NCBI GenBank assembly: GCA_965250285.1
Contig: OZ252299.1
Coordinates: 1,056,001 to 1,120,000 of the forward strand
Source: Myxococcota bacterium
GTDB lineage: Bacteria; Myxococcota_A; UBA9160; UBA4427
Direction: 5' to 3'
Length of the DNA: 64,000 bases
Shown here: piece after piece, positions 26,870-43,768 of the stretch
Layout: the number at the start of each line of letters is the position of its first letter
How positions within the stretch are numbered: the first letter of the stretch is position 1
Notes under the pieces: generated by a model
Seen by the model: the letters and a program-made list of their open reading frames with translations, nothing else
Database searches by the model: none
Told to the model about the DNA's origin: nothing
Translations under genes and position numbers: made by a program

Positions 26870-28729
26870 TCACGCCCGAGCCGCCTGAGCCGAAGGCTTC
26901 GGCTCGGTCCGCGGCAGCACGAGCCGCACGCGCGCGCCCGACGGCGACCGGTTCGAGAGCTCGAGGCGGCCGTCGAGATCGCGCACCACGCGTCGCACCA
27001 TGGCGAGACCCAGCCCCGTGCCGCCCTGGCGCGACGTCTGGAACGGTTGCGCGCCGGCCTCGAGGGTCTCGTCGGGGAACCCCGGGCCATCGTCGTCGAC
27101 GCCCAGCACGAGGTCATCGCCGTGCACGGCGACCGTCACGTCGATGCGTCCCTCCGAGCCGGCCCCCTGTGACTCGATCGCCTGCTGCGCGTTCAAGACG
27201 AGATTGAGGAGCGCCTGACGAACCCGATCCCGGGGCAGGGGCCAGTGAGTCGCCGCGTCGGGCTCGTAGACCAGCTGAACCGTTGCCGGCACGCGGAATC
27301 GCACGAGTGCGCACAGCTCGTCGACCAGGCGCGTCACGTCGACGTCGCCGATGGGCTCGGGCTCGTGGCGCGCGGGGGCGAGGTAAGCGCTGAGCAGTCG
27401 CGTCAGCCGCTGCATCTCCTTCGCGATCAGCTCGAGGCGCTCCTTCGTGTCGGGGTCGCCCGTTTCGCGGAGCAGGTTCTCGAGGCTCATCATCATGCCG
27501 GCGATCGGGTTGCGCAGCTCGTGGGCGAGCCCCGCTGCCACCTCACCGAGCGCGGCGAGTCGCTCGGCGCGAGCGAGGGACTCGTGCTGCTCGAGCAGCG
27601 TCGTCGCGGCCGCCTCGGCGCGGTCGCGGGCGACGGCCAGCTCTGCGTTCGACCGCCGCAGCTCGAGGGCGCGTTCGACCAGGTCGTCGGTCAGACCTGC
27701 GGCGAGGGCGACCGCCTGCTGGCGACGCTGATTCAGCCAGCGCACCGCGCCGAAGATCAGGAGGCTGGTGACGACCCCCGTCGCCAGCACGGCCCAGGAC
27801 TCGCGGCGCCGGTCGTAGAATGCGTGGGGGTCGTCGCCGTCGACGACGAGCGTCCACGACTCGCCGTAGAGATCGATGCGGGCCGCGCCGCGGTAGCGAC
27901 CCGCTTCGCTTTCGACGACGCCGTCCGAGGCCGAGTCGGTGAAGAGCAGGAAGGCCGGATCGGGCTCGGCGCTCGAGTACAGGCTCAGATCGATGAGCGG
28001 GTCATCCTCCTTCACCAGCGTTTCGAGCAGGCCCTCGACGAATCGCTGTGCGATGAAGGGGGCATACACCCAGCCGTGGATCAGCGCTTGGCGATCTTCG
28101 ACCGTGGTCGGCACCTGCCCTCCATCGTAGACGGGCGTGAACATCACGAAGATCGGCTCGACGTCGCCCGGTTCGACTTCGAACTCGACGCGTTCGGAGA
28201 GCGTCGTCTCACCCGTATCGCGTGCGCGCTCCATCGCCCGGCGTAGCTCGGCGACCGACGCCACATCGAAGCCGACCCGCCCCTCGTTCGGCGAGACCGG
28301 GTTCGCGTACTGAATCACGAAGTGCTCCTCGAGCGGGAGCCGCGGGTAGATGCGAACGAGCAGTCCTGCGCCTTCGCCGAGCGCGCTCTCGGTCTCGGCC
28401 AGTTCGTCGGCGCGTACCCGCACGGCATAGCCGAGGCCCTGCGCGCCCGGGTGCCGACGCGGCAGATCGAGTCGTTGCTGGAACTCGCGCCACTCATCGC
28501 GGGTGACCTCGTCGCTCGCGTTGAAGAGGCCGGCGCCGCCGAGCAGGGCGTCGCGGTAGCTATCGAGGCGGTGTTCGAGGGCCGCCGTCGTGTCGCGCAG
28601 CACTCCGTCGAAGTAGCTCCAGCGGGCGCGCTCGGCGTCGCGCTGGGCCTCGCGCCACGCGTCGTGGGTGAAGGCGAGGCACACCACCAGCACGATCCAC
28701 GGGAGCATTCGAAAGATGAGTTCGCGCAT
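26870..28729 (-). CDS. CHASE-domain sensor histidine kinase
   Basis: TM-CHASE (GFDVAS...AMERARDTGE, GWVYAPF)-TM; H-box LAHELRNP; NLVLNA, DDGPG, GTGLGL. Confidence 0.9.
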   Translation of the reverse strand: MRELIFRMLPWIVLVVCLAFTHDAWREAQRDAERARWSYFDGVLRDTTAALEHRLDSYRDALLGGAGLFNASDEVTRDEWREFQQRLDLPRRHPGAQGLGYAVRVRADELAETESALGEGAGLLVRIYPRLPLEEHFVIQYANPVSPNEGRVGFDVASVAELRRAMERARDTGETTLSERVEFEVEPGDVEPIFVMFTPVYDGGQVPTTVEDRQALIHGWVYAPFIAQRFVEGLLETLVKEDDPLIDLSLYSSAEPDPAFLLFTDSASDGVVESEAGRYRGAARIDLYGESWTLVVDGDDPHAFYDRRRESWAVLATGVVTSLLIFGAVRWLNQRRQQAVALAAGLTDDLVERALELRRSNAELAVARDRAEAAATTLLEQHESLARAERLAALGEVAAGLAHELRNPIAGMMMSLENLLRETGDPDTKERLELIAKEMQRLTRLLSAYLAPARHEPEPIGDVDVTRLVDELCALVRFRVPATVQLVYEPDAATHWPLPRDRVRQALLNLVLNAQQAIESQGAGSEGRIDVTVAVHGDDLVLGVDDDGPGFPDETLEAGAQPFQTSRQGGTGLGLAMVRRVVRDLDGRLELSNRSPSGARVRLVLPRTEPKPSAQAARA

Positions 28730-40152: not shown

Positions 40153-40425
40153 CGGTTCGCGGTGCCAGGGCCGGGGCAGGCGGGGGCACCGTGCTCGGAC
40201 ATTCTCGGCGCGACCTGACTGGGAAGCTCCGATGTTGCGCACGTCGCGCCTGCGAACTGCGCGCGGTACCCCCGACTGCCCCGGCCGCGGTCCGCGGTGC
40301 CAGGGCCGGGGCAGGCGGGGGCACCGTGCTCGGACATTCTCGGCGCGACCTGACTGGGAAGCTCCGATGTTGCGCACGTCGCGCCTGCGAACTGCGCTCG
40401 GTACCCCCGACTGCCCCGGCCTCGG
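40153..40425. repeat. Two tandem near-identical 135-bp units, each a long imperfect palindrome (REP/MITE-like)
   Basis: Period 135. Each unit (40169-40286, 40304-40421) has ends GGCCGGGGCAGGCGGGGGCACCG / CGGTACCCCCGACTGCCCCGGCC (21/23 complementary) and inner arms GGCGCGAC/GTCGCGCC. Confidence 0.9.
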
Positions 40426-40733: not shown

Positions 40734-41816
40734 TTAGGCCCCGGCCTGCGCGACGGCCTGCCCGCCCGCCTTGGGGCGGTTCGGCTCACGCGAGAGCAGC
40801 AGCAGGGGCTGGTTGAACTCGCGCTGCTTGCTGCGGATCGTGTGCGCCCGCTTCCGAACCCACTGCACGTTCCGCCGATGACCGAGCGCGCGCGCGATCT
40901 CGGGCCCGGTGGGCGGATGCGCGCGGCGTTCGACCAGGTCGAGGTAGGCCGTGAGGAACTCGCGCTCGTGGCTCGTCCACTCGGGCTCGGTCTGGATCCC
41001 GCGCAGCCACTTCGACATCTGGCCCTTGAGCACCAGCGGGAGCTGACGCGCCTCGATCTGCTTCCACCGGATGTTGTGCACGAGCACGTGCACGCCGGTG
41101 CGATCGACGTCGCCGAGCACGGCCGCGATCTCTTCGGCCGAAGGGAACGCTCCGCCGTTCTGCTCGACCAGCGTGAGGTAGGCCTCGGCGACCCGAACCT
41201 CCTTCGGCGTGAGCAGGCGCGTCTCGGCCGCCTCTCGCAGCGCCTCGGTCACGAGGTTCGCCAGCGGGACCGGCTGCGGATTCTGCCGGAAGTGGCGGAT
41301 GTGTCCCGCCTCATGGTCGGTGCCGCGCAGGCCGAGCCCCTCGCGAACGCACTCGATGATCTCGTCTGCACCGTGCTGGGTCGCGGCATTGTTGCGATTG
41401 AGATCGATGACGACCGCGAGACCCGAGAAGAGGTAGTCGTCGATGCGATACGCGATGGCCCCCGCCGCTGAGCTCGGCGGTTCGACGAACGCGACGAAGA
41501 GATCGCCGACTCGCACGCCGTCCTCGGGCTTCGCTTCGAGATCGACGGGCCCCTGGGCTGCATCGTCGGTCACCCGAGGCGCGACGCGGCGCGCGCCGAG
41601 CCCGGCGCGCAGCTTCAGCGCACCGGCGCGGACGACCGGGTCGTGGCTCGTCTCGAGCGTGTGCGTGAGCGAGAGGTCGAGGTCTTCGACCGCCTGGAGC
41701 ACCTGGTCGACCACGTCTTCGTGGGGGTCGATCACGGCCGCACGGCGCGTGTCGCTGCAGGCGACGACGTAGGCGTGGCGGCCATCGGTACCGACGTTGA
41801 ACTGGCGAAAGATCAT
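40734..41816 (-). CDS. Degenerate MBL-fold (persulfide dioxygenase-like) domain fused to two LexA-like HTH repeats; putative regulator
   Basis: Starts MIFRQ..YVVAC..AAVIDP..LET like ETHE1/PDO, but the metal ligands are missing. Two C-terminal repeats read P(S/T)..EIA..LG. RBS AGGAGG. Confidence 0.7.
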   Translation of the reverse strand: MIFRQFNVGTDGRHAYVVACSDTRRAAVIDPHEDVVDQVLQAVEDLDLSLTHTLETSHDPVVRAGALKLRAGLGARRVAPRVTDDAAQGPVDLEAKPEDGVRVGDLFVAFVEPPSSAAGAIAYRIDDYLFSGLAVVIDLNRNNAATQHGADEIIECVREGLGLRGTDHEAGHIRHFRQNPQPVPLANLVTEALREAAETRLLTPKEVRVAEAYLTLVEQNGGAFPSAEEIAAVLGDVDRTGVHVLVHNIRWKQIEARQLPLVLKGQMSKWLRGIQTEPEWTSHEREFLTAYLDLVERRAHPPTGPEIARALGHRRNVQWVRKRAHTIRSKQREFNQPLLLLSREPNRPKAGGQAVAQAGA

Positions 41817-41993
41817 TGGGACTTCCTCCTGAAAGGCGGCGCGGCCCTGCCGCGTCGTCCCCGCTCCAGCGGGCTCCTTGCCCGCCCTGGCCGTGGGGCA
41901 CCCGCCGAATTTGCAGCGAACGTGCCAAGCCCGCAGATCGGCGATTTCTCAGGAATTTCAAGCATTTGCGGGAATGCACGAAATGGTCCGCAC

Positions 41994-42009
41994 TGGCTGA
42001 TTTCAGCCA
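41994..42009. promoter_or_regulatory. Operator-like palindrome in a divergent promoter region
   Basis: TGGCTGA-TT-TCAGCCA within an AT-enriched intergenic stretch. Confidence 0.4.
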
Positions 42010-42189
42010 TCTGCGTGAATTCGCGGTGCATCCCAACCAGTGGGGCGCGGCCTCAAGCCGGCTTCTCTGCAGGCCGATTTCGATGATCGGGATCGTGCGA
42101 CGCCCGGCCGCCGCGCCGTCGATGAACGGTGCGGTGCGGGCGCCTGCGGGCGCGCGGCGTGAGCCGCTCCGCGTCCAGGGAGGTGCACC

Positions 42190-43056
42190 GTGCAGAACGG
42201 ATTCAAGGGGATCGTGCTCGCGGCCTGCGTGGGTCTCATGGCCTTCGGCTGCGCGAGCGTCGACGGTCAGGGAGCGAGCGGCGATGCCGAGCTCGTCGAG
42301 ACGCCGCAGACCGTGAGCGCCGCGTGCAAGGTCAAGGTCGACGATTACCGCGGAACGGCGATCGTGAGCTGCGCCGATCGCGGCGGCGAACTCGATCTGC
42401 TCGAGGGCGACTCATACTTCAAGGCGCATCTTCGCGGCATGGCGAACCGAGGCGGCGCCGAGAGCTTCCAACTCTACGTTGCGACGCGACTCGATGCCGG
42501 CTGGGAGAACTTTCGCGCCGCGCGCGACCAGCACGAGATCCCGTTGACGGTCAGCAAGATCGACCGCAAGAAGAGCTGCCAGAGTGAAGAAGACTGCACC
42601 TACTACGAGCACTTCGGCGTGTCGTTCTCGCGCCCCTACCTCGAGGCCCGCAAGGTGCGGGGGATCTCGCTGCGCGTGCGCAGTCATGCAGGTGAGTCGG
42701 TGATCGAGCTGCCGGCAGCGTACGTCGAGGGCTTCATGAACCGCTTCGATGCGGCGCGCGGTGGTGCGCCCGCGTCGGCCCAGGCGGCGGCGACCGCCAA
42801 CCGCAAGTCGTTCTGCAAGGGCAAGTACGGGCGGGATCCCGAGGCGCACGCATTCTGCGAGAAGCAGGCGCGCGCCTCCTACGATCGACTCGAGCCCGCC
42901 CTTCGCCGCATGCGAAACGACTCGTTCACCCCCGAGGCCAAGGCGCTCGATGGCTGCATGAAGCGACACGGCAGCCGACTCGGCCTCGATTGGATGATGG
43001 TCGAGCACTGCTTCGGTCGAGCGACGGGCCGTTCGCCGGCGTCGCACGGGCAGTAG
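42190..43056 (+). CDS. Hypothetical lipoprotein, two Cys-containing domains
   Basis: RBS GGGAGG; lipobox LMAFGC. Confidence 0.75.
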   Translation: MQNGFKGIVLAACVGLMAFGCASVDGQGASGDAELVETPQTVSAACKVKVDDYRGTAIVSCADRGGELDLLEGDSYFKAHLRGMANRGGAESFQLYVATRLDAGWENFRAARDQHEIPLTVSKIDRKKSCQSEEDCTYYEHFGVSFSRPYLEARKVRGISLRVRSHAGESVIELPAAYVEGFMNRFDAARGGAPASAQAAATANRKSFCKGKYGRDPEAHAFCEKQARASYDRLEPALRRMRNDSFTPEAKALDGCMKRHGSRLGLDWMMVEHCFGRATGRSPASHGQ

Positions 43057-43060
43057 ATCG

Positions 43061-43768
43061 ATGAACGAGGGATCGCTCCACTCGACGTCATGGGCTGGCC
43101 GGGTCGCGCTCGCTGCGCTGGCCACCGCGATCGCGTTCGCGGTCGGTTGTCAGACGGGACCGCCCCCCACGCCCATCGACCGCGCGCACACCGCATTCGA
43201 CGCCGGCGACCTCGAAGCGGCGTTCGCCCTCTACGAAGAAGCTGCGCGGACACAGCCCCAGCGCCGGGCGGAGGCCCTGCACGGGGCCGCCCGCGTGCGG
43301 ACCCTGCGCCGCGATCCCGAGCGCGCGCTCGCGCTCTACCGGGCCGTGGCGAAGGCCGACGGTGACTACTTCACCGCCGCCGCGCGCGGTGACTACGCGC
43401 AGACGCTGCTGCTCGCAGGTCAGATGCGTCTCGAGGCCGACGAGCTCGCGGCATCGATCGACGCGCTCGAGGCCCTGCATCGGATCGATCCCGACTACCC
43501 GGGCCTCTCGAAGGCACTCGCCCAGGCGTGGACCGCGCACGGTGAGCAGCTGTCGATGCACGGACGGCGGACCGAGGCGATGGCGCGATTCGAGGGCGCC
43601 ATGGCGCTGCGTCCCCAGGCGGCCGAAGCGTGGATCGGGGCCGCCGAGATCCTCATCGCGACGGGCCGAAAGAAGGAGGCGCTCGCGCTGCTCTCGAACG
43701 CCAGTCGGTACAACCCCAGCGATGGCCGGGTGCGCGCCCTGACCGTTCAAGCGATGGGTGTCTACTGA
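43061..43768 (+). CDS. TPR lipoprotein
   Basis: Lipobox FAVGC; several TPR-like helical pairs. Confidence 0.75.
   Translation: MNEGSLHSTSWAGRVALAALATAIAFAVGCQTGPPPTPIDRAHTAFDAGDLEAAFALYEEAARTQPQRRAEALHGAARVRTLRRDPERALALYRAVAKADGDYFTAAARGDYAQTLLLAGQMRLEADELAASIDALEALHRIDPDYPGLSKALAQAWTAHGEQLSMHGRRTEAMARFEGAMALRPQAAEAWIGAAEILIATGRKKEALALLSNASRYNPSDGRVRALTVQAMGVY

Follow-up and report, generated by a model that had tools for sequence, protein, structure and literature searches.

A truncated pseudo-persulfide dioxygenase fused to tandem helix-turn-helix repeats, a candidate second-tier regulator in a predicted sigma-54 cascade of Myxococcota

P0001 joins a truncated MBL fold, derived from a type I persulfide dioxygenase (PDO), to two C-terminal helix-turn-helix (HTH) repeats, and it belongs to a protein family that is real and apparently undescribed. 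On balance, the reading preferred here places P0001 in the second tier of a sigma-54 cascade, as a transcription regulator that uses the dead enzyme as a scaffold. Its gene lies in a window of 64,000 nucleotides, the whole stretch of DNA that was analysed, where the open reading frame and the ETHE1/PDO motifs quoted by an earlier sequence-only reading are present as that reading gave them. The features located in the window are collected in Table 1.

The gene has a GC3 of 0.89, as expected of a real gene. A word-based search retrieved 31 homologues at 40-87% local identity, none of which (0/31) has a Pfam domain on record, and a profile of the C-terminal module matched 17 representatives among 1.84 billion sequences. 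Fourteen module sequences were newly read: eight carry a PDO-like N-terminus at their start, four are fragments, one has a different N-terminus and ends within repeat 1, and one is a repetitive chance match; P0046 (E 1e-4), which is repetitive, was taken as a chance match. The PDO-like N-domain is kept in every full-length member seen, and overall identity across the family is about 35-45%. In the bacterial family of the window the module is present in 17 of 68 genomes (the carriers) and in 6 of 19 genera, and it was not found in other families among 401 genomes drawn from the phylum. The record names of the relatives are Myxococcota, Deltaproteobacteria and TMED72/88, with Spirochaetaceae for three of them. 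No longer fused form of P0001 was found, which is a weak negative. The ESM Atlas returned no usable match to the C-terminal module, and the whole protein led to MBL clusters below 0.9. The earlier claim that the architecture is undescribed stands: no described family combining a pseudo-PDO with a tandem HTH appeared in the libraries and full-text literature searched, a collection with few subscription papers and no supplements, where a mention in a genome survey is possible.

Several other elements were observed around the gene and its relatives. A divergent 313-aa paralogue with a short linker is encoded at G000 C1:2244059-2244997 (L040 8060-8998) in the window's genome and has a counterpart in G190:C338; in both genomes (G000, G190) it lies upstream of an HlyD/FtsX/ABC exporter cluster. 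Within the window, positions 42190-43768 hold a divergent lipoprotein-like gene lacking a Pfam match and a TPR gene, an arrangement that is syntenic in G190. Several g8 genomes have a hybrid kinase-receiver gene directly upstream of the P0001 orthologue (L042 4683-6830; L046 8250-10565). At 40153-40422 there are two head-to-tail copies of a 135-bp REP/MITE-like element with internal inverted repeats, of which about 35 copies at >=86% are scattered across the genome, often in tandem.

Table 1. Features of P0001 and its predicted regulatory region in the window
Feature	Position	Strand	Remarks
Coding sequence, P0001	40734..41816	minus	360 aa; truncated pseudo-PDO domain plus tandem HTH module
HTH repeat 2	40782..40988	minus	residues 277-345; predicted recognition helix 314-334, net charge +7
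HTH repeat 1	41019..41219	minus	residues 200-266; predicted recognition helix 238-256; invariant H243, H247, R250, Q253
Conserved helix before repeat 1	41220..41267	minus	residues 184-199
Variable linker	41268..41390	minus	residues 143-183; low confidence; replaces C-terminal part of PDO
Truncated MBL fold of type I PDO origin	41391..41816	minus	residues 1-142
Ribosome-binding site	41822..41831	minus	AGGAGG
Predicted sigma-54 (-24/-12) promoter	41912..41927	minus	11/12 consensus positions; predicted start near 41901
IHF-like site	41956..41968	plus	1 mismatch to the consensus; in AT-rich stretch
Proximal palindromic upstream site	41994..42009		predicted NtrC-type activator site; best-scoring in genome
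Distal upstream site	42024..42039		30 bp from proximal site
CHASE-domain histidine kinase	26870..28729	minus	genome's best kinase-core match to the kinase adjacent to the gene in other genomes

At the N-terminus, P0001 shares over residues 1 to about 142 the MBL fold and core of the type I PDO/ETHE1 enzymes (M. xanthus 4YSB, human 4CHL, BpPRF 5VE3), whereas it lacks their iron ligands and the part that carries Tyr197/Arg214 and is fused to a tandem HTH. A sequence search matched 4ysb to residues 1-143 with an E of 2e-12, Foldseek ranked 4ysb, 8zbd and 5ve3 at the top, and the VIA Z against type I PDO is about 15. The PDO-like part had been drawn to about residue 175; the fold assignment holds, but the likeness ends near residue 140-143. 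Since pLDDT falls below 50 at residues 138-183 and residues 143-183 show a mean identity of 19% in the family, the N-domain is truncated and not just mutated. The iron ligands of PDO are His79, His135 and Asp154, and Arg163, Tyr197 and Arg214 lie on the substrate side, according to two published sources (PMC4383860, PMC11507549). In P0001 the His/His/Asp set is replaced by S57, S116 and L133. The family was compared, as 50 partly redundant rows (36 from protein databases and 14 from genome loci), with 14 intact PDOs of the same class, one of which was checked against solved PDOs. No iron ligand is kept in 33 of the family rows, one is kept in 16 and two in a single row, so that all three occur in 0/50 rows against 14/14 intact PDOs; no fixed residue has taken their place, and the disruption of the three metal-binding motifs reads as originally described. 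On the substrate side, the Arg163 column holds Arg in 2/50 rows, the Tyr197 column is empty in 50/50 and the Arg214 column in 45/50. The family alignment (45 rows) has no Cys column conserved in at least 50% of rows. Twenty-five N-domain positions are nonetheless conserved at 80% or more; most conserved positions are PDO core residues and some (Y39, P80, Y128) are unlike PDO. In a tree that took in 25 of the 50 rows, with the window's gene entered once more among the outgroups, to which the '2 changes' scored for the family are due, the family forms one long-branched clade separate from PDOs and other MBL proteins (support 99/92).

The M. xanthus, human and Arabidopsis enzymes (MxPDO, hETHE1 and the Arabidopsis protein) form dimers through their N-terminal regions, while the B. 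leptomitoformis PDO does so through its C-terminal regions instead, as stated in PMC11507549. It is the N-terminal part, the dimer region of the first three enzymes, that P0001 has retained. The N-domain is quite probably a scaffold rather than a glutathione (GSH) sensor, and its scaffold role would most plausibly be dimerisation. Pairing with a native type I PDO in a heterodimer is disfavoured, as only one of the 17 carriers yielded a close type I PDO, matching the query used at 56% or more.

The two C-terminal repeats, recognised from the start as units of about 62 aa, are identical at 25 of 62 positions and align with a profile-profile probability of 97.9%. Mean identity over 45 rows is 0.43 and 0.30 in the N-domain and 0.54 and 0.64 in the repeats, which means that conservation is inverted relative to an enzyme. 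Structure prediction and Foldseek, the fold check proposed earlier, bore out the HTH assignment: the module is modelled with a pLDDT of 88, and each modelled repeat consists of a helix-turn-helix with a long third helix followed by a single short strand or bridge. The relative orientation of the repeats is poorly defined in the model (pTM 0.54). Near-invariant Trp residues occur in the repeats; repeat 1 has a net charge of -1, and its predicted recognition helix reaches only +1. Because the two predicted recognition helices differ, an asymmetric DNA site is suggested rather than a pseudo-dimer, and the pseudo-dimeric module first envisaged has become doubtful.

The tandem-HTH module matches no named family. 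In VIA, sigma region 3, WhiA, MntR-type, sigma region 4, LuxR-type and LexA domains tie at Z 6-7.4, the sigma-54 core-binding domain is also among the top structural ties, and all Z values of the module search stay below 8; no Foldseek match reaches an E of 0.001. A PDB profile search of the module gave nothing meaningful, and Pfam and NCBIfam gave sub-threshold HTH matches only. With respect to sigma-70 factors, weak structural ties to regions 3/4 and one FliA match (E 0.025) in 1/45 rows were observed, and no region-2 Pfam match was obtained. A GcrA/Myb likeness was not supported, with no Pfam match in 32 members and no place among the listed structural rows. Fold and conservation taken together make it probable that the P0001 product binds DNA specifically.

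Upstream of the gene, a sigma-54 box fitting 10-11 of 12 positions of what we take to be the sigma-54 consensus was found in 16/16 orthologue promoters, compared with 42/3200 shuffles; two loci, L009 (truncated) and L040 (the paralogue), had been left out of this count beforehand. The box recurs in 10 of the 11 metagenome loci with enough upstream DNA, the miss being a paralogue-like locus. At the L040 paralogue of the window's genome, sigma-54 box and palindromic sites were looked for and both are absent. Motif discovery returned a palindrome with the consensus TGGYTSAWWTSAGCCA, located -78 to -83 and -109 to -113 from the box. Palindrome pairs are spaced 30-31 bp apart in 16/16 promoters and 31/32 sites score above 4 bits, in search windows that were fixed after discovery and left room for spacings of 19-41. 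Palindromes and box are separated by an AT-rich stretch, and an IHF-like match with at most one mismatch occurs in 7/16 promoters as a raw count. The promoter alignment shows no extra conserved motif for self-binding. The palindrome was also considered as P0001's own operator, which is disfavoured, given its presence in a genome that lacks the gene (G140); an overlap of the kind seen at mrpC is possible.

The orthologue neighbourhoods support the regulatory setting that had been proposed. A histidine kinase and an NtrC-type activator with receiver, sigma-54 AAA+ (GAFTGA) and Fis-type HTH domains are encoded directly downstream in 15 of the 17 carriers, that is, in 15/15 outside the window's genus; at L009 the activator is cut by the contig end. 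In the window's genus (2 genomes) kinase and activator are unlinked to the gene. The activator of the window's genome is located at G000 C1:226739-228157 (60% identity), and the CHASE kinase of Table 1, whose sensor domain differs, is a possible partner. A profile of the activator C-terminus matches in 17/17 carriers and 4/51 non-carriers, a co-occurrence that is partly circular, as both profiles derive from one set of loci and the genomes are related. In G140, where the activator is present and the gene has no match, the sites and box precede the kinase-activator pair; they also stand upstream of genes for a lipoprotein and a YflT-domain protein, beside a BON gene. The presence of the same sites in G140 without the gene indicates that the sites track the activator. 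In G083, a non-carrier with the activator, the palindrome precedes the kinase and the box is poor, and in G007 (95% complete) and G201 the activator is present with no match to the site pattern. The activator very probably drives the sigma-54 promoter of P0001.

A wider scan for the site pattern with two mismatches was noisy, with hits in 43/68 genomes and many that were not promoter-like. A conserved protein of ~120 aa without Pfam match has a similar promoter in three genomes (G102, G202 and G000; G000 C1:583940-584290, L103 1081-1449, L086 470-865), and its promoter at C1:583940-584290 ranks 3 of 329 candidate promoters. By this promoter likeness it is a candidate member of the regulon to which the P0001 gene itself belongs. 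In two g8 genomes a ~95-aa protein is encoded behind a strong sigma-54 box and an upstream site (L098 1129-1419; L099 1675-1959). The second-ranked promoter, C1:2291911, precedes PDO-rhodanese-TauE genes and probably belongs to their own divergent PAS-type activator. At that locus (L051, G000:C1:2290430-2294322) the PAS-type sigma-54 activator, presumably FisR-like, diverges from an intact MBL (PDO-like)-rhodanese-TauE operon, and repeated palindromes there resemble the P0001 upstream sites. No sulfur genes recur among the orthologue neighbours in the neighbourhoods read. Tentatively, the putative co-regulated genes point to stress or envelope functions and not to sulfur metabolism.

The P0001 mRNA is probably monocistronic, as judged from sequence features. 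A script detected terminator-like hairpins between gene and kinase in 7/15 loci, one of them weak, and a TATG(A/C)T hexamer occurs in that interval in 11/15 against 1.3 expected. Among metagenome contigs shorter than 1.5 kb, 6/9 hold this ORF alone with 54-80 bases on the 5' side and 2-77 on the 3' side, and none of them includes the box; contig L116 has a genomic match at 95% identity and starts about 17 bases past the start site predicted for that match. L114 and L116-L120 coincide almost exactly with the orthologous ORF, a pattern expected of transcript assemblies, and may be of RNA origin. The hairpins, the hexamer and the ORF-only contigs disfavour co-transcription with kinase and activator.

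P0001 belongs to none of the systems that it most resembles, namely LexA, PDO, WhiA and the family of mrpC. The repeats had been called LexA-like. The helix 1-3 geometry does agree with the LexA DNA-binding domain (PF01726), LexA 3jso superposing at an rmsd of 1.5 over 53 columns with a Foldseek E of 1.6, but the likeness is that of a generic HTH: the VIA Z for the LexA domain is 6.4, tied with many HTH families, and PF01726 scores 13.4 bits on P0001 (E 0.066) against a cut-off of 23.7. Across the family its best E is 0.006, with E<=1 in 4/32 members. Compared with 22 LexA domains, repeat 2 reaches a profile probability of 31% (shuffled maximum 7.5%) and repeat 1 of 3.9% (2.8%), a score on the level of shuffled sequences. 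Unlike LexA, P0001 shows no wing match and has two C-terminal copies; no Pfam match to the Ser-Lys peptidase/self-cleavage site was obtained in P0001, which ends 15 residues past repeat 2, and the window's genome has a LexA of its own. PF17778 (LACTB2-type) MBL hydrolases also place an HTH-type domain after an MBL fold, as P0001 does. Descent of the repeats from that BLACT_WH domain was rejected, 20 PF17778 domains giving probabilities of 0.1-0.3%, and a PF17778-type MBL protein is encoded by a separate gene in 21/21 genomes checked. A parallel in design is WhiA, the nuclease of which we take to be dead. Its scaffold is LAGLIDADG (homing-endonuclease-like) and it has one HTH, whereas P0001 has an MBL scaffold and two. 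In both proteins an enzyme-derived N-terminal scaffold precedes a C-terminal HTH, which drives DNA binding in WhiA according to PMC3240954. The parallel in circuit is M. xanthus MrpB-MrpC, where, according to PMC10701913, a transcription-factor gene with a putative sigma-54 promoter is controlled by an enhancer-binding protein through two UAS; P0001 resembles mrpC in that it has two UAS and a predicted sigma-54 promoter. MrpC itself is a CRP/Fnr protein unrelated to P0001, and the likeness concerns circuit position, not a developmental role.

Other explanations have to be weighed against a scaffolded regulator. The sequence-only reading proposed a dead PDO domain that switches a LexA-like pseudo-dimeric DNA-binding module upon binding glutathione or persulfide. 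Such sensing is unlikely because the iron ligands are lost and the half with the substrate Tyr and Arg is missing. The closest fold is indeed that of a type I PDO, every full-length member seen has kept it, and a few g8 proximal sites resemble those before the intact PDO-rhodanese-TauE operon of the window's genome; nevertheless, that operon has its own divergent activator, the pocket columns of the family vary freely, no Cys column is conserved at 50%, and the rarity of a close type I PDO among the carriers also speaks against it, which leaves this proposal improbable. A broader version, in which P0001 regulates by binding DNA and a remodelled surface of its N-domain senses a different small ligand or a partner protein, would fit a domain never lost in full-length members and conserved positions unlike PDO. 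Most of the conserved positions, however, coincide with the PDO core, and the long branches are those expected under relaxed selection, so that we regard it as unlikely, if less so than glutathione sensing.

About as unlikely is a role in which the repeats bind protein and the product feeds back on the activator, sigma-54 or RNA polymerase as an anti-activator or anti-sigma factor. It would account for the near-invariant Trp residues and the tight linkage to the activator, and sigma regions 3 and 4, WhiA and the sigma-54 core-binding domain are indeed among the top structural ties; according to PMC3240954, a sigma factor as well as DNA is bound by WhiA. Against it, repeat 2 has a near-invariant third helix that is strongly basic, and the sigma and WhiA matches are ties among many DNA-binding HTHs. 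The ORF-only contigs, possible transcript assemblies, would suit a nucleoid-associated protein that binds without specificity, is abundant and responds to the same signal, but near-invariant recognition-helix residues at the overall identity of this family suggest base-specific reading, and we consider that role very unlikely.

In the preferred reading, that of a second-tier regulator with a dead-enzyme scaffold, a membrane histidine kinase would phosphorylate the NtrC-type activator, as their strong conservation suggests. The activator would bind the two palindromic sites 30-31 bp apart and open the sigma-54 promoter, with IHF bending likely, and the two repeats of P0001 would in turn bind an asymmetric DNA site at target promoters. 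The enzyme half, which kept its core strands and lost its pocket, would act as a scaffold, most plausibly for dimerisation, and not as a glutathione/persulfide sensor. More speculatively, and with less confidence than in the reading just given, a halved and metal-stripped PDO may have been domesticated to form the head, dimerising or sensing, of a master regulator specific to this lineage. Its HTH module would be a new DNA-binding family, and the regulator, placed below a kinase/sigma-54 activator pair as MrpC is below MrpAB, would control a stress or lifestyle programme in uncultured bacteria labelled as Myxococcota.

The lineage is known here from assembled genomes only, and the narrow distribution of the protein family limits the significance of the finding. 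Comparison has nevertheless delivered a testable circuit, composed of a kinase, an activator, two mapped sites, a sigma-54 promoter and a few co-regulated genes. P0001 would also be a clean example, within the MBL superfamily, of an enzyme domesticated into a regulator, and related genomes still encode the parent enzyme with which it can be compared; if the reading is true, P0001 would be the first MBL-fold pseudoenzyme transcription factor.
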